Assembly: GCA_031364845.1 (NCBI GenBank)
Contig: JANLWX010000155.1
Location: forward strand, 1-13,821
From: Candidatus Eiseniibacteriota bacterium
GTDB taxonomy: Bacteria > Eisenbacteria > RBG-16-71-46
Direction of reading: 5' to 3'
DNA: 13,821 bases
Shown here piece by piece: positions 389 through 13,821 of this stretch. The notes beneath the pieces were generated by a model. That model did no database searches and was not told the DNA's origin. It worked only from the letters and a program-made list of their open reading frames with translations. Within the stretch, counting starts at the first letter, position 1, and each line of letters opens with the position of its first letter. Position numbers and translations under genes: made by a program.

Positions 389-418
389 TTGGCGGATCGT
401 TACCGGCGCCGGTACAGT
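389..418 (+). promoter_or_regulatory. Possible sigma70-type promoter for the phosphatase gene
   Basis: TTGGCG (389-394), 18-nt spacer, TACAGT (413-418), just upstream of ATG 431, which has no clear Shine-Dalgarno. Weak match only. Confidence 0.25.
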
Positions 419-430
419 CAACGCCTCGCC

Positions 431-3232
431 ATGATCGACGATCCCCGACACACGCGCCCCGCCTCGGCGGCTCGCTTCACGACCGCGAATCTCCTGCTGC
501 TCGTGATCTCGATCATGGTGGTCGTGGGAGCGTTCGTATACGCGACCTATGCCCGCCAGGTCGCAGGCCGCAGGGTGTGGGTCGGCCTGAACTACATGAC
601 GTCCGACACACTGCTCGCCCGGCGCAGCGGAGCTTTCATGCTCGGCAAGAAGTTCGTTCCGGGCGGTGTGCTCGAGGTGACGCCGCGGGGCCCGGCGGAT
701 GTTGCGGGCCTGCGCGCGGGGGATCGCGTGCTCTCGATCAATGGTATCCCCGCGCGGGCGGAATCCGTGCTGGCGCTGCTCGGGCCCCGGACCCGTCCCG
801 GCGAGCGGCTGGGCTACCGGGTCGCGCGCAGCACCGATACGCTCACCCTCGCGGTCGCGCCGATCTCGGGCGAAGATCACAACCGCCGATCGGTTCCCTG
901 GTTCTACAATGTCGTGGCGCTCGCGACCTGGTTGATCGGACTGTTCGTTTCGATCCGCCTGCCGCGCGACCGGCGCGCGGCGCTGTTCGGACTGACCTGC
1001 GCGACCGCGGCCGCGACCTATCTCATGACGCCGCTGATCAAGAACCCGTCGCAGACCGACGGCATCCGCCCGGCCGGCAATCTCACGCTCGAGCTGGGTC
1101 TGGTCATCGGCGTGATCGCGTTCACCGCGATGGTGTTTTCGGCGCTCCTGCTCCACTTCGCGCTCGTGTTCCCGCACCGCCGTCCGGGTGTCCGAACGCA
1201 TCCCGAGTGGCTGCATGCGATCTATGCCGCACTGCTTTACCCGCCGATCGGATTCGCCGCCTCGATCGGCGCCAGCATCCTCGCGCGCCGCGCGGGCGTG
1301 ATCGCGACCGTGGGGGTGATCGCCGCGTGGCTGATCGGGGCGTTCGTGTTCGCGCGCCGCCGCATGCCGGCGCCGGGATTGCGCGAGCGCAGTCTGAGAC
1401 AGCCGTGGCTCTCGATGATTCTCATCGCGGGAGTCAGCGTGATCGTCTCCATGGCGGCCGTCCAGTTCATGGGACCCGCCCTGCGTCCGGTCCGGATCGG
1501 ACTGCTCACGACCGCGATGATGGTGCCGCTCGTCGGATTCTTCCTGCTGCCGTTCGGCTTCGGCATCGCCACGATCGTGGCACTGGTGCGCAGCTTCCGT
1601 GAGAGCGGCATCGAGGAACGCCAGCAGATCCGCTGGCCGCTGTGGGGCATCGTGATCTCGGTCGGTCTGTCGCTCGTGCTCACGGTCGTGAGCGTCGGGC
1701 TCGCGATCGGACTCGACACGCAGACCATGCTGCGGCTTCAGCCCGCGGTCTCGGCGCTGACCGGCCTGTCGACGTTGATCATTCCGATCACGTTCGCCGT
1801 CGGCATTCTCAAGTACCGCCTCATGGATCTCGATGTCGTGATCCGGCGCGCATCGATCTACGGCGTGTCGCTCGGCGTGCTGGCGCTGGTGTTCGTGGCA
1901 CTGGTCGCGGGCCTCGGCGGGCTGATCGGCCAGTTGCTCGGGCTCGCGAGCCACGTCGTGACCTCGGGCGCCACGGTCGCGGTCGCGCTGATCGCGGTGC
2001 CCGCGTTCCGGCGCGTGCAGAACCTGCTCGACCGCAGTTTCTTCCGCACGCGCTACGACGCGGCGGCCGTGCTGCGCCGGATCGGCGATGTGGCGGCTCA
2101 GGTGTCGGACACCGCCACACTCGGACGGCGCGCGATCGAAGAGCTTCAGGCAGCGCTGCGCTGCCGAACCGCGGCGTTGCTCGTGCGTCGCGGCAATACG
2201 CTGGTGCCTGTCGCGGCACTTGGAGTCGATCCGGAGAAGCTGGACCGCGTTCCGGTGGAGGCCGCGTTCACCGGACCGCACGCGGCGGGCACGCACTTGC
2301 GAGTGCTGGGGCTCAGCGGCCCGCTCGCCGTCGTCGCGGGGCAGGCGCGTGCCGACATGCTGGTCCCTGCGCGGCATCGCGGCGAGCTCCACGGCGTGCT
2401 GGCGCTGGGCGCCAAACTCTCGGACGAGGACTTCACGCTGGGAGATCTCGAGTTCCTCACCGCCGCGGCCGGGCAGATCGCGGCCGGCATCGCCAGCTCA
2501 CGCGCGAGCGGCCAGAACCGTGAGTTGAACGAAGCGCGCGAGATCCAGGCGAGCCTGCTGCCCGCGCAATTGCCGGCGTTCGAAGGCTTCGATCTCGCCG
2601 CGCACTGGCAGCCGGCGCAGCAGGTCGCGGGCGACTACTACGACGCGTTCGTGATCGAGGCGCGCGGCCTCGCGGTGTGCATGGCCGACGTGACCGGCAA
2701 GGGCATGCCCGCCGCACTGCTGATGTCCAATCTGCAGGCGATGGTCAAGGCGTTCGCGCCGATCGCGTCCGGGCCCGCGGCACTGGTCGAGCGGCTCAAT
2801 CGGGTGCTCGGCACCCAGCTTACGCCGGGACGATTCGTCACGCTGTTCTACGCCGAGGTCGATGCGCGCACGCGCGTGATGAGCTACGTGAACGCGGGCC
2901 ACAATCACCCGCTGCTGTTGCGCGCGGACGGCCGCGCGGAATGGCTCGATCGCGGCGGACCGTTGCTGGGTCCGGTGCCCGATGCGGTGTTCGAGCAGGG
3001 TGCCGTGACGATCGAACCCGGCGACCGCATCGTGCTCTACACCGACGGCATCACCGAAGCCGAGGGCGCGGATCGCGGGCTGTTTGGGGAGGACCGGCTG
3101 CTCGACGCCGTGCGCGATTCAGCGCCGGGCGATGCGGGGACGATCCAGCGCGCGCTGCTCGCCGCGGTGAGTGCCCATTGCGGCGCTGAGTTCCAGGACG
3201 ACGCCACGGTGCTGGTGATCGCGGCGAACTGA
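431..3232 (+). CDS. Membrane-bound PP2C-family (SpoIIE/RsbU-like) Ser/Thr phosphatase with N-terminal PDZ domain, multi-TM region and GAF-like domain
   Basis: PDZ-like VLEVTPRGPADVAGLRAGDRVLSING after the first TM helix. Many hydrophobic helices end in FAVGILKYRLMDLD...VQNLLDRSFFR. GAF-like segment LVPARHRGELHGVLALG. PP2C motifs AREIQASLLP, VAGDYYD, ADVTGKGMPAAL, FVTLFY, NAGH, LYTDGITEA, DDATVL. ATG 431 preferred to the in-frame TTG 389. Confidence 0.92.
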   Translation: MIDDPRHTRPASAARFTTANLLLLVISIMVVVGAFVYATYARQVAGRRVWVGLNYMTSDTLLARRSGAFMLGKKFVPGGVLEVTPRGPADVAGLRAGDRVLSINGIPARAESVLALLGPRTRPGERLGYRVARSTDTLTLAVAPISGEDHNRRSVPWFYNVVALATWLIGLFVSIRLPRDRRAALFGLTCATAAATYLMTPLIKNPSQTDGIRPAGNLTLELGLVIGVIAFTAMVFSALLLHFALVFPHRRPGVRTHPEWLHAIYAALLYPPIGFAASIGASILARRAGVIATVGVIAAWLIGAFVFARRRMPAPGLRERSLRQPWLSMILIAGVSVIVSMAAVQFMGPALRPVRIGLLTTAMMVPLVGFFLLPFGFGIATIVALVRSFRESGIEERQQIRWPLWGIVISVGLSLVLTVVSVGLAIGLDTQTMLRLQPAVSALTGLSTLIIPITFAVGILKYRLMDLDVVIRRASIYGVSLGVLALVFVALVAGLGGLIGQLLGLASHVVTSGATVAVALIAVPAFRRVQNLLDRSFFRTRYDAAAVLRRIGDVAAQVSDTATLGRRAIEELQAALRCRTAALLVRRGNTLVPVAALGVDPEKLDRVPVEAAFTGPHAAGTHLRVLGLSGPLAVVAGQARADMLVPARHRGELHGVLALGAKLSDEDFTLGDLEFLTAAAGQIAAGIASSRASGQNRELNEAREIQASLLPAQLPAFEGFDLAAHWQPAQQVAGDYYDAFVIEARGLAVCMADVTGKGMPAALLMSNLQAMVKAFAPIASGPAALVERLNRVLGTQLTPGRFVTLFYAEVDARTRVMSYVNAGHNHPLLLRADGRAEWLDRGGPLLGPVPDAVFEQGAVTIEPGDRIVLYTDGITEAEGADRGLFGEDRLLDAVRDSAPGDAGTIQRALLAAVSAHCGAEFQDDATVLVIAAN

Positions 3233-3262: not shown

Positions 3263-4384
3263 CTACTTCAGGATGAACGGCACCGTGAAGCGGATCGTGG
3301 TTCCGTTCGGTTGCGCCGCCTCGGCGACCACCGTTCCGGAGTGGGCTTCGACGAACGTCTTCACGATCGCAAGGCCGAGCCCCGTGCTTCCGTCGCGGTC
3401 GGGATCGCCTTCGCCCTTGTCGAAGACCTTGTCCATCAGTTCAGCGGGAATGCCGGTACCGTTGTCGGTCACCCAGCATTCGACCAGGCCATCGAGCGCC
3501 ACGACCTGCGCGCCGATGTGGACCTCTCCACGAGCCGTGTACGCGATCGCATTGGCGATCAGGTTCTGAAAGATCCGCTTCAGCAGTCCGGCGTCGGCGA
3601 AGATCACGAGATCCTCGGGCACCGCGTTGACCAGCAGTGTGCTCGAGGTCCCGGCGACCGGATGCAGGTCGTGGATCAGCGCCTCGACGAGCGGCCACAG
3701 ATCGAGATGGCGGCGCGCGAGTTTGAGACCGCTCTCGGTTTCGAGGTTGCTGTTCTCCTCGAGAACCTTGACGACCAGACTCTCCAGATGACCGACGTTG
3801 CGATGGAGCGACTTGATCATGCGGCCGACCTCGGGAGATCCGCCGGGGCTGTCGGTCTTCAGCTCGAGCACCCGTGCCGCGAGTGCGATGGCATTGAGCG
3901 GAGTGCGCAGGTCGTGCGCCACGAACGCGAGGTATTCTTCGCGCCGGCGCTGGACATCGAGCGCTCGCTGCGTGGCGAAGCTGTCGACGGCGAGGCCGAT
4001 CGCGCCGTCGAGCACGCGGTTCAAGATGTGGAACGCCTCGCCCGCCAAGGAGATCTCATTGGTCTCGGCCAGGTCGTGCACGCAACCGCGCAGGATGTTG
4101 TACTCGGCAACGACTTCGGCGATGTCGAAGCCATCCTCGAGGCGCTGCACGCCATGCGCCGGAGGAGTCCCTTCGATCAAAGCATGCGCGATCGATTCAT
4201 CGGAGCGCGTCTCGAGCGCCGTGGCCAGTTCTTCGAGCAGCGCCGGGATGTGATCGTTGAGCGTGGGCACGTCGAGATGCCGGGCCGAAACGAGCTCACG
4301 CACCTGTCCCCGCCATGTCGCGAGCAACTGATCGCGGTCGCGGCGAATCAACGTCGCGAGCGTGGCGAGTTCGAGGCGGGTCAA
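3263..4384 (-). CDS. Soluble sensor histidine kinase (HisKA + HATPase_c) with N-terminal RsbRD_N-like helical domain
   Basis: H-box FVAHDLRTPL, N-box FQNLIANAI, G1 DNGTGI, G2 GLGLAI. N-terminal HGVQRLEDGFDIAEVVAEYNILR resembles RsbRD_N-type domains. No TM segment. TTG start immediately follows the upstream TAG stop. Confidence 0.92.
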   Translation of the reverse strand: MTRLELATLATLIRRDRDQLLATWRGQVRELVSARHLDVPTLNDHIPALLEELATALETRSDESIAHALIEGTPPAHGVQRLEDGFDIAEVVAEYNILRGCVHDLAETNEISLAGEAFHILNRVLDGAIGLAVDSFATQRALDVQRRREEYLAFVAHDLRTPLNAIALAARVLELKTDSPGGSPEVGRMIKSLHRNVGHLESLVVKVLEENSNLETESGLKLARRHLDLWPLVEALIHDLHPVAGTSSTLLVNAVPEDLVIFADAGLLKRIFQNLIANAIAYTARGEVHIGAQVVALDGLVECWVTDNGTGIPAELMDKVFDKGEGDPDRDGSTGLGLAIVKTFVEAHSGTVVAEAAQPNGTTIRFTVPFILK

Positions 4385-5242
4385 CTACGAAGCTTTCTTC
4401 GCGCGTTCCTCGGGCTGGCTCTGGCGCAGGATCTGCGCCTCGCGCTTGCGCGCCCATCCGTCGATGGCCCGCACCAGTTCCGGCGGTGGGGCGATCGCGA
4501 AATCCTTCGCGGTCGCCATGCGGCCTTCGAGCAGCAGCGCCTTCGGCTGGTGGTAGGTGCCGAAGACCCAGTCGGCGATCGGCAGGCCGAAGAAGCCCGA
4601 GATCGCCTCGTTGCAGGAGATGTTCGCGTGGTGCATGTGATGGAATCCGTAGATGCGACGCCACAGGCCGCCGAAGCGCGGATGCTCGGTGGCGCTCTTC
4701 CACCACTCGTAGGGGCGATGCTCCATCGCGTGCAGGATCTCGTAGAGCGCCATCGAGAACGCGACCGCGCCGTAGCCGCCGATCAGGATCGGGAGTTTGG
4801 GAAACATGATCTGCACGCCTGCCAGCAGGGGGGTAAAAATCGCGGAGAACGCGATCATCGCGTAGACCGGGAACGCCGAGTCCTCGAACTGCTCCGCATC
4901 CGTGATCGGATAGCGGTTGAGGATGTAGCGGTCGGATCCGGTGGACACCGCCTGCAGCTTGATCGGGGTCAGGCCATGATGATTGCGGTGTCCGTGGGCG
5001 AAGCGCGAGAGCACCTTGAACGTGATGGAGTGCAGCACGTAGCGGTGGAACGCCCATTCGAAGAAGCACAGCACCATGTGGGTCGCGGCGAACACCAGGA
5101 AGAACGCGAGCGGTCCTGCAGCGATCTGATTCGCCCACACGTTGGGCAGGAATGTCCGGATGCCGAGCATCAACAGCACGAACTGCGCGACGGTCTGGAC
5201 GCTGAACCAGAAGATGGAGAACTTCTTTCTTTCCTGAGCCAT
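4385..5242 (-). CDS. Membrane di-metal His-motif protein, fatty acid hydroxylase/sterol desaturase superfamily
   Basis: Four His clusters EWAFHRYVLH, GHRNHH, YEILHAMEH, FHHMHH separated by TM pairs. ATG 5242 (MAQERKK) has GGGGA upstream and is preferred to the track start at 5389. Confidence 0.82.
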   Translation of the reverse strand: MAQERKKFSIFWFSVQTVAQFVLLMLGIRTFLPNVWANQIAAGPLAFFLVFAATHMVLCFFEWAFHRYVLHSITFKVLSRFAHGHRNHHGLTPIKLQAVSTGSDRYILNRYPITDAEQFEDSAFPVYAMIAFSAIFTPLLAGVQIMFPKLPILIGGYGAVAFSMALYEILHAMEHRPYEWWKSATEHPRFGGLWRRIYGFHHMHHANISCNEAISGFFGLPIADWVFGTYHQPKALLLEGRMATAKDFAIAPPPELVRAIDGWARKREAQILRQSQPEERAKKAS

Positions 5243-5338
5243 TGCCAAAGTTTTCCCCCGGGAGAGCGGAGTGCTGGGGCCGCCAAATGGGCCCGATTCA
5301 AACCGATATTGTGCTGGGCAATCCGGCCGACAGAGCGT

Positions 5339-5394
5339 AAAAACATCCGCGACCGCCCAATCTGACACGCAGTGGGCGCTCGCGGTCATGGATG
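5339..5394 (-). terminator. Long imperfect hairpin followed by a T5 tract; candidate intrinsic terminator downstream of murB
   Basis: CATCC(5344-48)/GGATG(5390-94), GACC(5351-54)/GGTC(5384-87), GCCCA(5355-59)/TGGGC(5373-77), CTG/CAG inner stem. AAAAA at 5339-5343 gives UUUUU directly 3' of the stem on the minus strand. Confidence 0.45.
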
Positions 5395-5509: not shown

Positions 5510-6493
5510 TTACCCAGCCTCGGGTATCGGCCTTTCGCCAAGGAACATCACTTCTTCCTCGAGCTCGACCCCGAACTTCTCGCGGACCCGCCCCTTCATG
5601 AGCTCGGCGAGTTCGAGCACCTCGCGCGCGGTCGCGCGGCCCGCATTCACGATGATGTTCGCGTGCTTGGCGAACACCATCGCGTCGCCGACCCGAAGCC
5701 CGCGGCACTCGCACTCGTCGAGCAGCTGGCCCGCCGCCACCCGGTACGTGCCCGGCGAGAGCTTGGCCCCCGGCATCCGCCAGTCGGGCGGCAGGTTCTT
5801 GAAGTACGAGCCCGCCGTCGGTTCGACGCGCCATTGCGGATGCTTCACGCGGCGAATCTCGAGCTTCTCCTCGATCTCGCGCGCGCTCGCCGCGGGATCG
5901 CCCTTCTGGAGCTGGAGCAGGCACGACAGCAACACGCGCGGGTCGCGCTTGAGCCTGGAATCGCGGTAGGCGAACTCGAACCACGACGCCGGGCGCGTCT
6001 CGACCTTGGCGCCGTCGACGGTCGCGATCGTGCACTCGATCGTGAACGAGCCGATGTCCTTGCCGTAGCAGCCCGCGTTGCCGAACAGCGCCCCGCCGAC
6101 CGAACCCGGAATCCCCGCGGCGAACTCGAGGCCGGAAAGCTCACGATCGCGGCAATAGAGGATGAAGTCGAGGAAGTCCGCACCGCACCCGACGTGGGCC
6201 ACCGTGCCGTCCAGTTCGACCGAGGCGCACGCGTTGCGGATCACGAGCCCGCGGAAGCCTTCGTCCGAGACCAACAGATTGCTGCCGCCGCCGAGCAGGA
6301 ACAGCGGCATCTCGATCTCGTGCGCAATGCGCAGGGCCGCGACCATCTCGTCCGGCGTGCGCGCCGCGTAGAAAAAGTCGGCCGGGCCGCCGATGCGAAA
6401 CGTCGTGTGGTGGCGCAGCGGCTCGTTGGTGAGGAGCAGATCGCCGAGCACCTTGCGCAGGCGCTCTTCGGCGGTCGCGACGCGTTGCATCAT
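5510..6493 (-). CDS. murB: UDP-N-acetylenolpyruvoylglucosamine reductase (UDP-N-acetylmuramate dehydrogenase)
   Basis: Motifs HTTFRIGGPA, LGGGSNLLV, GLEFAAGIPGSVGGAL.GNAG.YG, FAYRDS, AGSYFKN, KHANIIVN, FGVELEEEV. ATG 6493 has AAGGTG 8 nt upstream; alternative in-frame start at 6520. Confidence 0.97.
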   Translation of the reverse strand: MMQRVATAEERLRKVLGDLLLTNEPLRHHTTFRIGGPADFFYAARTPDEMVAALRIAHEIEMPLFLLGGGSNLLVSDEGFRGLVIRNACASVELDGTVAHVGCGADFLDFILYCRDRELSGLEFAAGIPGSVGGALFGNAGCYGKDIGSFTIECTIATVDGAKVETRPASWFEFAYRDSRLKRDPRVLLSCLLQLQKGDPAASAREIEEKLEIRRVKHPQWRVEPTAGSYFKNLPPDWRMPGAKLSPGTYRVAAGQLLDECECRGLRVGDAMVFAKHANIIVNAGRATAREVLELAELMKGRVREKFGVELEEEVMFLGERPIPEAG

Positions 6494-6634
6494 CGGGTCT
6501 TCACCTTTCCGGTCGGACATTGAGGTCGTGTGATGCGCGTACCTTGCCGTCCTCGCGCGCTCGGGTCAATGGAGCGCCTCGCGCTGCGGACTATCGGCGG
6601 CTGCGGCGTGCGCCTTCCCCGAGTCTTCGGCCGG

Positions 6635-6663
6635 TTGGTCGGCCGGAAACAGACCGCTATAGT
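6635..6663 (+). promoter_or_regulatory. Putative sigma70 promoter for the selenoprotein-DUF2231 unit
   Basis: TTGGTC (6635-6640), 17-nt spacer, TATAGT (6658-6663), in the divergent intergenic region ~95 nt upstream of ATG 6757. Confidence 0.5.
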
Positions 6664-6756
6664 GACTTCGTGCCGCGGCCGGCATCATGACGGCCCGGGC
6701 GCACTGCGACCTGATGAGACCCCTTGGCCGCGACATCCTCTGACCGGGAGAGTTCC

Positions 6757-6978
6757 ATGGCGACGATCGAGATCACCTACTGCGTACAGTGAAACTACCT
6801 TCCCCGGGCCTCCAGTCTGGCGGCCGAGATCAAGAAGACCCGCGGCATCGACGCGACCCTTCGCCGCGGTTCGGGCGGCCAGTTCGAGGTGACGCTCGAT
6901 GGAGCCGTGATCTTCTCGAAGAAGCAACTCGGACGATTTCCCGATCCGCAGGAAATCCTGAGCCAGATTCCGACCTGA
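6757..6978 (+). CDS. SelT/SelW/SelH (Rdx) family selenoprotein, 73 aa, selenocysteine encoded by in-frame TGA at 6790-6792
   Basis: GGGAGAG RBS then ATG 6757. Manual translation MATIEITYCVQ-U-NYLPRASSLAAEIKKTRGIDATLRRGSGGQFEVTLDGAVIFSKKQLGRFPDPQEILSQIPT*. Rdx hallmarks lie on both sides of the TGA: I.I.YCxxU, Y.PRA..LA, G.GG.FEV..DG..IFSK....RFP...EI. Absent from the ORF track because of the TGA. Confidence 0.93.
6805..6826 (+). promoter_or_regulatory. Candidate bacterial SECIS hairpin
   Basis: GGCC(6807-10)/GGCC(6822-25), T.C mismatch, CCA(6812-14)/TGG(6818-20), apical loop GTC (6815-17) starting 23 nt after the TGA. A G at the start of the loop and this spacing fit the bacterial SECIS consensus. 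Confidence 0.65.
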
Positions 6979-6997
6979 CGTTGGCCGCACGAGCCGC

Positions 6998-7393
6998 GTG
7001 AGCCTGCGCCAGCATCCGCTTCATCCGATCCTCGCGATCTTTCCGCTCTCGCTGCTGGCCGCGAGCGTGGCGCTCGATGTATACGGGCTCGCGGTGCGGG
7101 ACTCGGTCACGAACGCCGGCGCGCGTTGGGCGCTGGGTGCCGGCGCGATCGCGGGCGTGATCGCCGCGATCCCCGGCATCGCCAACATGCTCTCCTACCC
7201 TGGGCCCGCTCGAAGCGCGCCATTGCGACATGGCGTGCTCAACGGCGGACTCATCGTGCTGATGGGGCTCGGGTGGTGGCTGCGCGATGCAGGTGATGCG
7301 GCGCCGAGCGCGGTGGCGCTCGCGGTCTCTGCGGCGGCGGTCGTGATCGCGGTGGTCGCGTGGCGGATGGGCGTGCGGCTGACGCGGGGGTGA
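6998..7393 (+). CDS. DUF2231-like small membrane protein (about 4 TM helices)
   Basis: N-terminal HPLHPILAIFPLSL motif, AAIPG and RHGVLN segments, four hydrophobic stretches. GTG start 19 nt after the selenoprotein stop. Confidence 0.8.
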   Translation: MSLRQHPLHPILAIFPLSLLAASVALDVYGLAVRDSVTNAGARWALGAGAIAGVIAAIPGIANMLSYPGPARSAPLRHGVLNGGLIVLMGLGWWLRDAGDAAPSAVALAVSAAAVVIAVVAWRMGVRLTRG

Positions 7394-7450
7394 GAGGGGG
7401 GGCGCTGCTTGGAACGGGTTGATGTGCTTCAGGCCGCAAAGTCAGGATAA

Positions 7451-7516
7451 GGTCGAAGTGAAAAGCCTTCGACCACCACCTCGCGTCGGCAATTGCCCTG
7501 GCCGGCGCGAGGCGGT
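7451..7516. terminator. Two adjacent stem-loops between convergent genes
   Basis: GGTCGAAG(7451-58)/CTTCGACC(7467-74) perfect 8-bp stem, immediately followed by a 16-bp stem 7475-7490/7501-7516 with two non-Watson-Crick positions. No clear U tract. Confidence 0.4.
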
Positions 7517-7531
7517 CAACTCGTCGAAATA

Positions 7532-8160
7532 CTATCGGACGTAAATACCCGTCGCGCGCACCATGTGGTCTCCCTGCCGAAGCCGGGCGAAGTAGACCCC
7601 CGGCTGCCGAATTGCCGGTGATATCACGTGTCTTCCAGGTCCCTTTGCGGTGACATCCACGCGACTGACTCTTCGGCCGGCGATATCCATTATTTCCAGC
7701 ACCGCGGGGCCACTGCCGGGAAGATTGATCTCGAACGTCATGGACCGGCTCCCGCACATCAGGCAGCGAATCGACAGGGGTTCCCGCTTAGGACTCCCCT
7801 CGACAGCCACTGCGTCGATCGCAACTTCCGTCACCGCCTCTCCTGCGACCTCGCCGGCCTCGACGTTCCCAGCGCTGTCCGTCGCGACGGCGTAGAACCG
7901 ATACTGATGCCCCCTTGATCCGGTGAAACGGTGAAATACGCCTGCGTGGCGATTCCGTCGAACCATGCGTCGAATGGACCGCCGTCCTCCGACACGCGCA
8001 CCGAGTAGGCACAGATACCCGCACCCATGTCGCTCCCCGCCCATTCGACGAGAAAGCACGTCGTATCCATGATCGCGCTCAACGCGTTCACGGTGCTCTC
8101 AGGTGCGTCGTCGTCAACCGTGTAACGCACCGTATTCGTCGCGATCGGGGCGGCGGCCTC
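7532..8160 (-). pseudogene. 5'-truncated, frameshifted C-terminal remnant of a large exported protein (FN3/Ig-like domain + FlgD/T9SS-CTD-like domain)
   Basis: Track ORF 7831..8130 gives PIATNTVRYTVDDDAPESTV...VEWAGSDMGAGICAYSVRVSEDGGPFDAW...TQAYFT. ORF 7532..8059 continues in another frame with GSRGHQYRFYAVATDSAGNVE...LEIMDIAGRRV...PGVYFARL. The switch is at a CGGTGAAA duplication (7921-7936). In-frame TGA upstream at 8193-8191; no signal peptide. Confidence 0.8.
7921..7936. repeat. Exact 8-bp tandem duplication CGGTGAAA x2 causing the frameshift
   Basis: Read directly at 7921-7928 and 7929-7936. Removing one copy gives continuous ATQAYFTGSRGHQYRFY and 591 nt (197 codons) from GTG 8130 to the stop at 7532. 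Confidence 0.9.
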
Positions 8161-8230: not shown

Positions 8231-11200
8231 CTACGGCATAAGCACAAATTTCTGCACAGCCCGCATACTCCCACCCCGCACATCACAGAAGTAAAGCCCA
8301 GGAGCAACTCTTGCACCATTTGCTCGCCGCAAGTCCCAAACAAACTGATGCGTTCCCAGAACCAGGTCGTCTGATGCTATTCGCCGCACAATTCGTCCAG
8401 ACACATCAAGAATACTAACACTTGCGTGTGATCGCCTCGGCAGTGTAAATCTGATGTGCACCGGGCTGTTCCTCGCGGGATTCGGCCACGGTGTAACCAG
8501 CACAATTTCCTCCGGCTCACGCTTGTCGACGGATCCGTACGCAACATCAACACTCTGCCAATCGGTACGGTTCACTGAACGCAGCGGAATCACCGCAGAG
8601 CGGCCATTTACGGAGGCTGTAACCGCTGTTTCGCCCACCGATGTTGCGACCACGATAGCCTGCTGGACAAGTTCGGCCACCGCGGGATCAGCAACGCTAT
8701 ACGTTAGTCCCGGCAGATAACTAATATCGCGCACAAGACCATCATCATAGTACCCCAACAAGGATACCTGCGCGGAGTCACCCACCGCGCATCCAATAAA
8801 CGCGGGAAACGCGACAATCGAGTCAAGTAATGCTGCAATCTGTACTTCCACCTCCACAGTATCAAACGCCATTGCCCCGGACCCATCGCGGCCGATCACA
8901 AACAGAGTAATGCTACCTATCGCATCGATTGGCACGACTAGTGGCACCTGCCCGGCGCCTGCGTCGATCACGGTATCGCACCACGCACCACCGCCGTGCG
9001 CAGCACCAACAAATAGACTCGAAATCGGTCCAGTCGAACTCACGGATACATTAACACTCTGACCCGGGACACAAACGGCTCCTGTCGGAGGGCTTACAAT
9101 CGATACCGAGGCGATCGCCTGATCTCCTTTAGCCGAAGCCCCCCGCAGAGGGCTACAAGACACGTAACTAAGCACACTTGGCTGAAAGCCGGACAACCAC
9201 TCTGCTCCCGTGCTTGAAGTTCTTAGCAACCGTTTTACTTCGTCAACTATGGCGGGGGCGGCTGTCGCCTCAGTGTGTATCGGCCCCGCAAACTCGGATG
9301 TAGCCGATAACGCCACGCCGCCCCTTTGGCTACTCAAAGGCACGAGCAAGTCCGAATCCTCTCCTTGGAACACACATTCTGCCGCCCCGGCACCCAATAT
9401 CCAAAGCGTGAAACGCCACACGGTACCGAGCCAGCCGTTTCCCTCAAGAGCGCCGACCGTCGAGACCACAACGTGCGATGGCACGGTATTTCTATTCAGA
9501 CTAGGCCCGTTCAGGGCCGCGGTGGCCGCACTATTAACTCGCAAATCCTCAATCGCGCCGCGGTATGGATTCTTTGACGCGATCCGCAAGACTTCCCTAA
9601 GCACCAGCATGCCCGGCTCGTCATACAACAAGTTGGGTACCTGCGACCCAGCATGCGGAGACGTCAACGTGATGACACGAAACATATCGTTGGCATATGA
9701 CTCCGATTGCAAATATTTCCTGGCGAGCACCCCGCCCATGCTGTGGCCAACAACATCCACCTTCTCGGCTGAATACGCCCCGCTGACAGTCGAATCAAGC
9801 AGCGCTTGTATGCCGCGTTCCACGACGTCGCGATTGCTCTCGAAGTGCAAGTCACCATGATAGGAAATCGCAAGCGTAACAGGTGTCCTTGTCCCTACAA
9901 ATGCACGCTGCATAGCATCCCAGGTGGAGCCCGCTGACCACAGCCCGTGAACCATGAGCACAGGCGGGCGATGCCAGCGAACTGGGATGTCGGCAAGAGG
10001 CTGTCCGTCCTCATCCGTAAGTATAACGCTGTAATCATCCTGAACTACTGGTCCATCTGGATGTGTAAGGATGAATGCCGCTGTAGATCCGCTAGCCTCT
10101 TGACGGTCAACCCTGCCACATCGACCAGGCTCATTACCCTCTACGTCCCAGCTGAGAGTGGCATTTATGCCACTGGGATTAGACAAGCCAAAGGTGTTGA
10201 ATGTTATTCTTGTAGACGGCGTCCCATCCGCGCACACATTAATCCGCGGCATCGCCGCGTCCCCTTCATAATACAACAGCCGGCCATCTCGTGATGGCAC
10301 AAGACTAATATGCTCTGCCGCAATCCTGCCGCAACGCGTCAGCTCCGATGATCCTGAGATACCTGCAGTGGCGCATAGGGCAAACGCATTGTGCGCCGTG
10401 GTCGGCAGAGTATATGACGCATATCCATGGGAGTCCGTCGTGACATCGACTGTAGCAAGGTAAAACTGCGCGCTAGCTTGCCCTAGCGGTGTACATGAGT
10501 CGCCATAATAGACGTCGATTGAGATATAAGTAAACGGTGTGCCGTTTACCCATATTTTTAATACAGTAGCGCCTCGTGCGCGCACTACCGCCGCCAGGGG
10601 ATAGTTGATCTGGTCGTTAGGGCCTGCGTCAACGTCCTGAGCATCATTTAACGACACTCCATCGTCGCCGATATCAATCTCCATGGAGTTGTTGTTATAG
10701 CAGGCATTGCCGCGCCAGCTATTTCGTCGCCCTATGAGAGATGGATTTGTTGCCTTGAGCACGATGCCCTTGTCGTTGTACGCAATGACGTTTCCGGACC
10801 CAAGCGTGCCAATAATATTGTCTGAAGCATCCTCAAGCCAAACACCGAACCGTGAGTTACCCACGGCCCCTGACCCATCTAGCCTGGTGCCGATGGCGTT
10901 TCTTATGATTACGTTATGGTGTGCTTGCTCAGATAGGCGCACACCGTATTTATTTGCGCCTAATACGTTGCCGTCAGCGGCGGCGAGCCCCCCAATTGTG
11001 TTGCCAAACGCTCCTCCCCGGATCCGGATTCCCGCCTCAATGTTTCCCAATGGTGCTTGAGTTGCGGTCAGACCGATAATATTGCCAAGTATACGATTAT
11101 TGCTGACATTGCCGCCGTTTAGTGTAATGCCGTGCTGGCCATTCGCGGAAATAATGTTGGGAGCACCCAACGCGTTGCCGCCGATTGTATTGTTGTGAGC

Positions 11201-12283
11201 GCTACTCCAAAGGTAGATGCCGTAGAATGTGTTGCCAAGAGCTTGGACTCCCGCGTAGTCTGTTCCAATATTATTGCCAAGAATCATGTTATCGTTAGTG
11301 TCTGGACCATTAAGGTTAATTCCACTTAGGGCATTGCCGGAAATCGTGTTGCGCGAGTTACTTGTGGTGCCGCCGATAGTATTGGCCGAGGCCCCGCCGA
11401 TCGAACCGCTACCATTGAGCAACACGCCGTCCCCGCTATTGCCGAGCGCGAGCGCACCAGTCCAATCCGTGCCAATTTTATTGTTGATTATGGTGTTCCT
11501 GGCCCCCATCCGATCGCCGGCATAGAATTCGGAGGCTCGCAGGACGATACCTGACGCACCGTTGCCGGAGATTACGTTGGCGTCCTCGCTGAGACTCCCG
11601 CCTATTACGTTGTCGGATGTAATTAGCCAAATGCCGTCAGAGCGGTTTGGTCTTTTCTGGGTACCAGTAATATCTGTACCTATATAGTTCCCTTTGATAG
11701 TATTAAAGCCGGTAGTTGTACTAACTATGCCCTCATTAAAACGGTTTATCACGAACCCTTGCACTACTGAATAGCCACCAGCTAGACCTATGCCGCGGGC
11801 CAGGCTGGCGGTGCCCCCCACTAGCTCGACTAACGGTCGGCCGCTGTAACCTGGCTGTGATCTACCATCTAGGAGTGTGGGCCCGTTCAATGTGGGCAGG
11901 TTTGTGAATACGGTTATTGTCTTGGGGCCGCTTCCGATGCTAAAGAGGATCGTATCAAAACCGGGATTCGCGTTCGCCCTAGTAATGGCATCGCGTAAAG
12001 TGCCAACGCCCGTATCGGCAGTGCTGACTACTGTAAAAGTCATTGATTGAACTTGTGTGGAGTGATCCAGCAAATGGTACTTATCCAGCGATAGGTCGGG
12101 CGTATCCGCGGTTGTGAACTCTGCGAAACCGGGATGCGCATGGATGGCTGCAGTGTCAGCGTGATTTTGGAATTGAGGGAATGGTTCAGACAATTCCGCC
12201 GATTGCTGCGGATTTGGCATTTTAGCTAGGGTGGTAGTAGTTGGGGGCAAAACGAGTGCAATGGCTAAAAAGAGCGAGTTCAT
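8231..12283 (-). CDS. Large secreted multidomain protein: signal peptide, parallel beta-helix repeats, alpha/beta-hydrolase (lipase/PGAP1-like), Ig-like domains, C-terminal FlgD-Ig/T9SS-CTD-like domain
   Basis: Hydrophobic N-terminus with GGTGGTG upstream. CSLREA-like cap TVVSTADTGVGTLRDAITRAN. Repeats N.IGG...N.ISGN...GI.L...N.I.GN.IGTD..G..ALGN. Hydrolase motifs PVLMVHGLW, VDVVGHSMGG (9731-9748), TLTSPHAGS, DSDLLVP, PIHT. Big_2-like YSVADPAVA...GETAVTASVNG. C-terminal PWPNP...F.LP...VSILDVSGR.VR...WD......VAPGLYF. Confidence 0.9.
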   Translation of the reverse strand: MNSLFLAIALVLPPTTTTLAKMPNPQQSAELSEPFPQFQNHADTAAIHAHPGFAEFTTADTPDLSLDKYHLLDHSTQVQSMTFTVVSTADTGVGTLRDAITRANANPGFDTILFSIGSGPKTITVFTNLPTLNGPTLLDGRSQPGYSGRPLVELVGGTASLARGIGLAGGYSVVQGFVINRFNEGIVSTTTGFNTIKGNYIGTDITGTQKRPNRSDGIWLITSDNVIGGSLSEDANVISGNGASGIVLRASEFYAGDRMGARNTIINNKIGTDWTGALALGNSGDGVLLNGSGSIGGASANTIGGTTSNSRNTISGNALSGINLNGPDTNDNMILGNNIGTDYAGVQALGNTFYGIYLWSSAHNNTIGGNALGAPNIISANGQHGITLNGGNVSNNRILGNIIGLTATQAPLGNIEAGIRIRGGAFGNTIGGLAAADGNVLGANKYGVRLSEQAHHNVIIRNAIGTRLDGSGAVGNSRFGVWLEDASDNIIGTLGSGNVIAYNDKGIVLKATNPSLIGRRNSWRGNACYNNNSMEIDIGDDGVSLNDAQDVDAGPNDQINYPLAAVVRARGATVLKIWVNGTPFTYISIDVYYGDSCTPLGQASAQFYLATVDVTTDSHGYASYTLPTTAHNAFALCATAGISGSSELTRCGRIAAEHISLVPSRDGRLLYYEGDAAMPRINVCADGTPSTRITFNTFGLSNPSGINATLSWDVEGNEPGRCGRVDRQEASGSTAAFILTHPDGPVVQDDYSVILTDEDGQPLADIPVRWHRPPVLMVHGLWSAGSTWDAMQRAFVGTRTPVTLAISYHGDLHFESNRDVVERGIQALLDSTVSGAYSAEKVDVVGHSMGGVLARKYLQSESYANDMFRVITLTSPHAGSQVPNLLYDEPGMLVLREVLRIASKNPYRGAIEDLRVNSAATAALNGPSLNRNTVPSHVVVSTVGALEGNGWLGTVWRFTLWILGAGAAECVFQGEDSDLLVPLSSQRGGVALSATSEFAGPIHTEATAAPAIVDEVKRLLRTSSTGAEWLSGFQPSVLSYVSCSPLRGASAKGDQAIASVSIVSPPTGAVCVPGQSVNVSVSSTGPISSLFVGAAHGGGAWCDTVIDAGAGQVPLVVPIDAIGSITLFVIGRDGSGAMAFDTVEVEVQIAALLDSIVAFPAFIGCAVGDSAQVSLLGYYDDGLVRDISYLPGLTYSVADPAVAELVQQAIVVATSVGETAVTASVNGRSAVIPLRSVNRTDWQSVDVAYGSVDKREPEEIVLVTPWPNPARNSPVHIRFTLPRRSHASVSILDVSGRIVRRIASDDLVLGTHQFVWDLRRANGARVAPGLYFCDVRGGSMRAVQKFVLMP

Positions 12284-12401: not shown

Positions 12402-13821
12402 TTAGTCGAGTACTATCGCCTTAGCGGTAGCCACCCGGTCGTATTGGCGGAGCCTGACCCAGTACACGCCGGCCGGGATCATTTTGCTTCGGTCGAGGCG
12501 CAGCAAGTGGCTGCCTGCGCCTAGCGAGCCCACCTCGCGCATGATCACCCGCTGGCCGGCCAGATTGACCACTTCGATCGTAGCTGGCGCCGCAGCAGGC
12601 AATGTGAACGAAACGTGGAGCGCGCCGCGGGCCGGGTTCGGAACAAGCCCCGAGAGGAAAAAGGCGGCCTTGCCTAAAGCTTCTATCCAGGCTGGGTCCG
12701 TGAATAGCTGGCTCGCTACTTGGTAGTAGCCGAGCCGATACCCGTACCGCTCTCCCGGGGTGATGTCGCGATCCTCGTACGTCACCATACCCATACCGTC
12801 CGCGGTCGCCAGAGCTATCTCCGTCCAGTCAGAGGAAGGTGTACGGCGATAGACTGTGGCGCTGAAGCTCACCACGACGGGAGCGAACCAGGAGAGAACG
12901 ACCCTCCCGGGCGCGACATCCGCGCTCACGAACGACACGAGCGTGGGCGTAACGTAGCTGGGGATGCCGTTGGCGTAGATGTCCCAGCTGGTCCCGCTGC
13001 GAAAGTCGGTCCAGGCGATAATCGCCCCGACAGCACCGTCCGCGACGATGGTGGGCCAAGCTTGATTCTTGACCGCGGTGCACAGGGCACGGCCGTCAGC
13101 GGGCCAAGCGCCGTCCAGCGCGCCCGAGGCCAGCACGTGCTGGGCGTAAATGTCGGCGTTGCTGGCGTTGTTATTTGTACGTATGTCCTGCCAGGTGACG
13201 ATCGCGCCGCCCGCACCGTCCGAGGCGATGCGCTGGTGGTCCTGCTGGTTGGCGGCGGTGCAGAGGGCGCGACCATCGAGAGGCCAGGCCGGATCCAGCG
13301 CGCCCGAAGCTAGGACGCGCTGGGCGTAAATGTCCTGGTTGCCCAGTCCGCCGCGGGCGTCTGACCAAGTGACGATTGCGCCTCCCGCCCCATCAGTAAC
13401 GATGGAGGGGCCCTGCTGGTAGTTGGCGGCGGTGCACAAAGCACGGCCTTCGGCGGGCCAGGCGGGATCCACCGCCCCCGAGGCCAGAACGTGTTGGGCG
13501 TAGATGTCTTCGGTTAACGTGCCGCCTACGCGGCGGTCCATCCAGGTGACTATCGCGCCGCCCGCCCCGTCGGCAACCATAGTGGGGAAGCGCTGATCGT
13601 TGAGGGCGGTACACAGGGCACGGCCGTCAGCGGGCCAAGCCCCATCCAGCGCGCCTGAGGCCAGTACGTGCTGAGCGTAAATGTCAGAGTCCCCGCTGCG
13701 GGCGTCTTGCCAGGTGACTATCGCGCCGCCCGCCCCGGCGGCAACCATAGTGGGGAAGCGCTGAGCGTTGAGGGCGGTACACAGGGCACGGCCGTCAGCG
13801 GGCCAAGCCCCATCCAGCGCG
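12402..13821 (-). CDS. Repeat-containing exported protein (probable beta-propeller-like repeats, FN3-like domain, FlgD-Ig/T9SS-CTD-like domain), 5' partial
   Basis: Frame is open beyond the track start 13748 to the window edge (ALDGAWPADGRALCTALNAQRFPT). Repeat consensus P.IV.DGAGGAIVTW.D.R....DIYAQHVLASGALD.AWPADGRALCTA...Q. Then TPTLVS...LSW...VYRR...YEDR..TPGERYGYRL and PNP...F.LP....IEVVNLAGQRV...GVYWVRL. Confidence 0.9.
   Translation of the reverse strand, partial: ALDGAWPADGRALCTALNAQRFPTMVAAGAGGAIVTWQDARSGDSDIYAQHVLASGALDGAWPADGRALCTALNDQRFPTMVADGAGGAIVTWMDRRVGGTLTEDIYAQHVLASGAVDPAWPAEGRALCTAANYQQGPSIVTDGAGGAIVTWSDARGGLGNQDIYAQRVLASGALDPAWPLDGRALCTAANQQDHQRIASDGAGGAIVTWQDIRTNNNASNADIYAQHVLASGALDGAWPADGRALCTAVKNQAWPTIVADGAVGAIIAWTDFRSGTSWDIYANGIPSYVTPTLVSFVSADVAPGRVVLSWFAPVVVSFSATVYRRTPSSDWTEIALATADGMGMVTYEDRDITPGERYGYRLGYYQVASQLFTDPAWIEALGKAAFFLSGLVPNPARGALHVSFTLPAAAPATIEVVNLAGQRVIMREVGSLGAGSHLLRLDRSKMIPAGVYWVRLRQYDRVATAKAIVLD
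12970..13821 (-). repeat. Intragenic tandem repeats, period 168-180 nt (56-60 aa), about five units in the window
   Basis: The block encoding WP..GRALCTA recurs near 13080, 13260, 13435, 13610 and 13780. The stretches 13542-13653 and 13710-13821 match at 110 of 112 nt. Confidence 0.9.

Follow-up and report, generated by a model that had tools for sequence, protein, structure and literature searches.

SelW-like proteins carrying a CxxU motif rank high among the known bacterial selenoproteins by frequency, and the family has been known since 2005. With 48 genes they form the most abundant family described in the Sargasso Sea selenoproteome (PMC1088965), and the 10 copies counted among sequenced bacteria in 2006 were judged to be ancestrally Sec-containing (PMC1794560). 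Two reviews place them under PF10262 with the motif CxxU (PMC9312934, PMC13188914), and the later one, from 2026, presents them as predicted with high confidence and as largely uncharacterized in function (PMC13188914). Annotation is a recurring problem, and the SelW genes of epsilonproteobacteria are reported to have been completely missed (PMC4607533). The prokaryotic members (PF10262, TIGR02174 CXXU_selWTH, NF041051) share an N-terminal CxxU, a length of about 70-90 residues, an in-frame UGA, a short hairpin after it that has a G in its loop, and frequent annotation misses. Here, we describe a gene of this type in a stretch of 13,821 nucleotides (the window) from a Candidatus Eiseniibacteriota bacterium (assembly GCA_031364845.1, contig JANLWX010000155.1), which differs from the described prokaryotic genes only in its host lineage. 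We found no paper linking Eisenbacteria with selenocysteine or a selenoprotein, and the group goes unmentioned in the main text of both reviews (PMC9312934, PMC13188914); supplementary lineage tables may list it.

The first-pass annotation of this DNA had claimed a ribosome-binding site and an ATG at 6757, the codons TAC TGC GTA CAG TGA AAC TAC, 61 further codons with the motifs GSGGQFEV, IFSK and RFP, and a gene absent from the open reading frame list. These elements are all present: a GGGAGAG stretch and the ATG are both seen (Table 1), the codon string is found exactly so, and the N-terminal product MATIEITYCVQ (11 residues) is followed by the in-frame TGA (6790-6792; the TGC codon is 6781-6783) and then by 61 sense codons, including all three motifs, before the terminal stop TGA (6976-6978). 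GGAG-type stretches precede the gene in many relatives. The mechanical list, with a threshold of 60 aa, holds no ORF of at least 60 aa in this frame and offers four wrong-frame ORFs over the gene instead (6530-6892 and 6789-7001 on the plus strand, 6685-6990 and 6830-7231 on the minus strand). The overlapping antisense ORF (6685-6987, minus strand) has zero Pfam or NCBIfam matches. The full-length read-through protein, with U read as C, has no exact match in a 15-billion-sequence collection, an annotation gap that is corrected here, and the C-terminal stub and the antisense ORF likewise have no exact match there. A promoter scan of 6400-7600 returned 0 sites; 35 of 45 homolog rows have a TANNNT box no more than 160 nt upstream, a count made without a chance control. 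Three terminator-like sites were found, all on the minus strand and none 3' of the SelW-like gene, and an Rfam scan of the whole window at gathering thresholds gave 0 matches. An upstream 18-codon ORF seen by eye (6688-6744) was rejected and taken as chance, because a same-genus genome, whose leader is shorter, has no counterpart.

Table 1. Coordinates of the SelW-like locus, its neighbours and other candidate selenoprotein genes. Positions without a contig prefix refer to the window.
Feature	Position	Strand	Basis or remark
Predicted SelW-like (Rdx family) selenoprotein gene	6757..6978	+	73 codons + stop TGA
CxxU motif: TGC (Cys9), GTA, CAG, TGA (inferred Sec12)	6781..6792	+	sequence, homolog alignment
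Shine-Dalgarno-like GGGAGAG	6746..6752	+	4 nt 5' of ATG; read from sequence
Predicted in-frame SECIS hairpin GGCC-U-CCA-[GUC]-UGG-C-GGCC	6807..6825	+	RNAalifold, covariation
Possible -10 box TATAGT	6658..6663	+	by eye, weak; TTGGTC 17 nt upstream at 6635-6640
murB (UDP-N-acetylmuramate dehydrogenase)	5510..6520	-	NF010480 260.4 bits, cut-off 259
DUF2231 membrane protein, directly downstream	6998..7393	+	PF09990 58.4 bits
Tandem Rdx pair in G030 (L015, L155)	C70:7132-7592		Cys copy without SECIS, TGA copy keeps it
Peroxiredoxin-like TxxU, likely selenoprotein	C192:5550	-	family match spans TGA
UshA-like PCGU, likely selenoprotein	C179:13114	-	family match spans TGA
DUF3179 UxxC, likely selenoprotein	C95:22280	+	family match spans TGA
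Thioredoxin-like UxxC, likely selenoprotein	C147:24530	+	family match spans TGA
AhpD/CMD CxxU, likely selenoprotein	C85:67062	-	family match spans TGA
SelD, likely selenoprotein	C122:16200	-	family match spans TGA
Tandem-YHS-domain candidate (L183/L195)	C50:32197	-	TGA about 25 residues before first YHS repeat

By its profile matches, the predicted 73-residue protein is a member of the SelW-like Rdx family. The Pfam and TIGRFAM searches proposed in the first-pass annotation both scored above cut-off, with 75.8 bits for PF10262 Rdx (E 3e-21, cut-off 22.6, profile positions 1-72 of 74) and 64.2 bits for TIGR02174 (cut-off 34.2); NF041051 also matches, at 91.1 bits (cut-off 88). Taken by itself, the sequence downstream of the TGA has 50.8 bits against Pfam Rdx from profile position 11 onwards (position 10-11 across the profiles), less than the whole protein, and since this part and the whole read-through protein both match the profile, the frame is not a product of chance. 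The window's gene is the one Rdx copy found in the source genome. Seven PDB sequences match the read-through protein (E 1e-12 to 5e-7), and the Cys-form bacterial Rdx structures 2fa8 (Atu0228), 2oka, 3dex, 2obk, 2p0g and 2ojl match its residues 4-67/71 (E 1e-12 to 2e-7), sharing the FEV/I...K...FP features with their CxxC aligned to the CxxU. The TGA had been placed exactly at the second Cys/Sec of the Rdx motif, and in C9-V-Q-TGA12 it does align with the second Cys of the CxxC in 2fa8 and 2oka, which carry Cys where the window's protein has the inferred Sec. At 103-108 residues these solved proteins are longer than the 73-residue minimal form in the window. A single-sequence structure model (pLDDT 69.6) has a helix at residues 15-29, three strands and a helix at 64-70, with residues 1-7 at low confidence and the first strand unformed. 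Its top Foldseek matches are all SelW-related structures, solved Cys-form Rdx proteins among them, with a best E of 1.4e-3 and a TM of about 0.55; no match reached E 0.001 or better with this model, whereas homology to the solved structures is clear at the sequence level. The eukaryotic SELENOW and MIEN1/C17orf37 (PDB 2npb, 2ljk) belong to the same fold family, with CxxU or CxxC and 22-32% identity. The SECIS of eukaryotes sits in the 3' UTR. Eukaryotic selenoprotein genes are described with another SECIS type (PMC1088965), whereas the predicted hairpin of the window's gene lies inside the reading frame.

On the evidence of sequence comparison, the UGA at codon 12 is very likely decoded as selenocysteine. 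By the established bacterial pathway, SelD would make selenophosphate, SelA would turn Ser-tRNA(Sec) into Sec-tRNA(Sec), and SelB, seated on the GU loop of the hairpin, would bring Sec-tRNA(Sec) to the UGA, a mode of delivery summarised for bacteria in PMC4607533. The product motif would be Cys-Val-Gln-Sec, a predicted redox switch in which Cys9 and Sec12, expected from the family to immediately precede helix 1 in a minimal thioredoxin-like fold, would cycle between the reduced form and a selenenylsulfide. Acting as a stand-alone oxidoreductase, the protein would reduce oxidised cysteines of partner proteins and be re-reduced by the thiol pool of the cell. It is probably cytoplasmic, given that a signal peptide is absent by inspection.

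Motif and fold together make a thiol-disulfide oxidoreductase role probable, as a CxxU motif on a thioredoxin-like fold suits thiol redox chemistry. The alternative that survives best concerns function only and shares the Sec decoding: the protein may be non-catalytic, binding metal or serving as a redox-sensitive adaptor, possibly one linked to murB and cell-wall precursors. The passages on bacterial SelW-like proteins in PMC1088965 and PMC13188914 put no activity on record, and in 20 of 22 same-family loci the divergent upstream neighbour is murB. However, the murB link is absent from the loci searched outside the family and in other phyla, a pattern that fits plain synteny, and the motif and fold themselves fit the redox chemistry; we consider a non-catalytic role unlikely. 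The oxidoreductase reading gains no substrate from the locus, in which there is no operon partner pointing to one: the DUF2231 gene directly downstream is poorly conserved as a neighbour, with 3 hits beyond the window's own locus among 117 loci searched. Elsewhere in the window lie the C-terminal end of a cytochrome P450 (1-336, plus strand), a membrane PDZ-GAF-SpoIIE phosphatase (389-3232, plus), an RsbRD_N histidine kinase (3263-4384, minus), a gene matching NF047868 TrhA_N_extend (4385-5389, minus; 278.9 bits, cut-off 200) with an additional weak fatty acid hydroxylase match, a 1350-aa alpha/beta hydrolase fusion of secreted type (8231-12283, minus) and a large secreted-type repeat protein (12402-13820, minus), the last two each with a FlgD/Por C-terminal tail. 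Two overlapping ORFs in different frames (7532-8130, minus) look like pieces of one FlgD/Por-tailed gene and are possibly a frameshifted gene.

The strongest additional support for the Sec reading is the predicted SECIS hairpin (Table 1), which the first-pass annotation had not mentioned. A bacterial SECIS is recognised as a hairpin shortly after the UGA whose small apical loop contains a G (PMC1088965, PMC4607533), and in the window's gene the loop G, at 6815, is separated from the TGA by a 22-nt spacer. The RNAalifold consensus of 96 distinct sequences returns exactly this hairpin. In the covariation analysis, 98.7% of cells are paired, compared with 17-47% in slid controls. Changes on both sides occur in 39 cells, where shuffles give 8.6 and none of 500 reaches the observed number, these two-sided changes being confined to 2 of the 7 pairs, both at third-codon positions, and the shuffles taking no account of relatedness. 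Codon choice in the hairpin is also constrained: among 104 distinct sequences, the loop serine at codon +8 is encoded by AGT in 94 of 94 cases, a codon that makes up 5.0% of serine codons in 635 long ORFs of the source genome, and leucine at codon +9 is CTG or TTG in 104 of 104, with CTC accounting for 46% of leucine codons in that genome. When single sequences are folded, the hairpin shows no gain in stability over shuffles (six windows, z-scores -0.15 to +1.34), hence the case for a SECIS rests on conservation. The hairpin of the source genome's selD gene likewise carries a GUC loop.

Cys-containing copies of the gene provide a natural control. At least 6 of the 7 pairs together with the loop G are kept in 121 of 123 TGA copies, the other two misfitting this hairpin, whereas none of the 9 Cys copies reaches this mark. 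A rough protein tree (82 of 129 rows, few columns, bootstrap unsettled) groups eight of these nine in a single clade that lies within the Sec copies, and the control thus amounts to about two independent events. Tandem Rdx pairs, with the Cys copy directly before the TGA copy, occur in one related genome (G030, Table 1) and on seven metagenome contigs (L161-L167). The arrangement suggests that the Cys copies may have arisen by duplication followed by a Sec-to-Cys change, and the Cys copy of a tandem pair is possibly a selenium-independent backup. More distant Rdx-like frames were also seen. Two loci (L159 in G016:C139, L160 in G005:C465) hold a second, divergent Rdx-like gene with C-x-Y-TGA, a different C-terminal half and a score below the Pfam cut-off. 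A third (L173:601-834) has C-L-I-TGA, and its downstream sequence misfits the hairpin in the tested register, in which the alignment is off by one codon.

The first-pass annotation had predicted selA, selB, selC and selD elsewhere in the genome, whose absence from a complete genome would have counted against the Sec reading, and all four are present in the source assembly (97% complete, 233 contigs). The genes selA (contig C28, 549.8 bits), selB (C121, 339.6 bits) and selD (C122, 356.8 bits) all score over their cut-offs, selD has an in-frame TGA of its own at the catalytic position (motif CAG-U-ASK), and just 3' of selD lies a tRNA with a UCA anticodon, called SeC by ARAGORN and matched by Rfam RF01852 at 63.4 bits. 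This tRNA-Sec (C122:15041-15138, minus strand) has A.G at the eighth acceptor-stem position, which is mostly unpaired across the lineage (G.A, C.A, A.C and others in the relatives L124-L153), and a G.G mismatch in the anticodon stem. Across 41 related genomes, a tRNA-Sec match of more than 60 bits was found in 38 and selA over cut-off in 37; for the 34 with an Rdx gene the figures are 33 and 31, and the misses comprise one 53% complete genome, one genome without a selA match and one contig-end fragment. As these kin are not independent, the co-occurrence is a matter of consistency and carries no statistical test.

A second alternative holds that a genome-wide code change or a suppressor places Trp, Gly or Cys at the UGA instead of Sec. 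UGA reassignment is known in other bacteria (PMC13462651), and the tRNA set of this assembly is incomplete, ARAGORN reporting no tRNA-Cys and no tRNA-Trp among 44 tRNAs, which is probably an assembly gap. Against a recoded UGA, TGA ends 716 of the 1104 long ORFs and is the main stop codon, hence there is no general recoding in the source genome; moreover, the sole UCA-anticodon tRNA found has Sec features and adjoins selD, and homologs have Cys at the aligned position rather than Trp or Gly. We regard such a reading as very improbable and selenocysteine as the very likely meaning of this codon.

The TGA itself is kept in public sequence data. The region 6500-7400 was compared with public contigs from four runs of one study of freshwater sediment metagenomes. 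Of the 16 listed rows of sequencing runs, the 12 sharing under 0.2 of the words were left out of this comparison; no RNA run was among those listed, which has no bearing on expression. One contig spans the whole region with three differences (6840, 6855 and 6861), all at synonymous third positions, and leaves the TGA unchanged, although its run may be the source sample of the assembly; a contig from a second run of the study is identical over 6626-6837. TGC or TGT in reads at 6790-6792 had been named as an outcome that would overturn the Sec reading, and there is no difference at these positions among the contig matches listed, which makes a sequencing error unlikely. Decay 3' of the TGA in relatives had been named as another, and the downstream frames are intact. 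In the 41 related genomes, an Rdx match was found in 34, all of which have a TGA copy, and 36 of the 37 Rdx matches contain exactly one TGA. A scan of GTDB genomes gave 226 confirmed relatives, and the best 80 of these, a choice biased to close relatives, were combined with 30 loci of related genomes into 111 homolog rows. Codon 12 is TGA in 110 of the 111 rows and TGC in one, and position 9 is a Cys codon in all 111. Among the best 80 of the 226, the closest named relatives are Ca. Eisenbacteria at 67-75% identity, followed by Zixibacteria, Thermoanaerobaculia, Myxococcota and others. The 110 TGA rows end in TGA (59), TAG (36) or TAA (15); the terminal UGA is, on this comparison, an ordinary stop that relatives swap freely for UAG or UAA. 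Differences after the in-frame TGA in 30 same-length relatives fall on third positions 888 times, on first positions 548 times and on second positions 358 times. Although TGC to TGA is a single base change and the assembly lies in 233 contigs, a pseudogene or assembly error, with TGC or TGT turned into TGA in a gene that is dead or wrongly sequenced, is refuted by a TGA conserved across independent genomes of several phyla with intact frames, by the third-position bias that persists downstream, by the public contigs and by a hairpin tied to the TGA state, and we see practically no chance that it is correct.

Further candidates were sought in the source genome by screening for a TGA followed by a hairpin. 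A first screen gave 346 candidates and was too loose; a stricter one retained 2061 of 110236 TGA sites, of which 16 were chosen by eye from the top 70, hence the resulting selenoprotein list is a lower bound. Six of the 16 belong to known families, including the SelD control, and from the family matches spanning their TGA these genes are likely selenoproteins (Table 1). Another is a YHS candidate, and the remaining nine have no family match or a match that ends before the TGA. The YHS candidate has a likely signal peptide and two YHS-like repeats and is probably secreted. Its close orthologs (E 1e-29 or better; L196-L213) have an in-frame TGA at or near the site in 19 of 19 cases; in 15 of them a lone Sec is accompanied by a GUY-loop hairpin, strong in most orthologs, and the other 4 have UxxxxC. 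The distant paralogs (L214-L224) have C-U in 6 rows and otherwise C-C-x-x-C. NF041384, the model for the catalogued YHS selenoprotein with its motif GxU, gave no match to the candidate, which hence may be a separate, possibly uncatalogued selenoprotein form.

The gene described here adds no new family and no new mechanism, and as a handle on the function of bacterial SelW-like proteins this metagenome-assembled copy is no better than the known ones. The tandem Cys/Sec pairs do provide a ready test of SECIS decay after a Sec-to-Cys change, and of the interchangeability of the two forms. The finding also shows wide use of selenocysteine in a sediment and soil lineage that has received little study. 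A bolder reading, less likely than not, is an undescribed and nearly order-wide selenocysteine economy in Ca. Eisenbacteria that would be marked by the SelW-like gene and would extend to uncatalogued selenoprotein forms. Among these would be the tandem-YHS family, probably secreted, whose motif would alternate between lone Sec, UxxxxC, CUxxC and all-Cys; in one branch, the Cys copy directly before the Sec copy would take over its redox task independently of selenium, as a backup.
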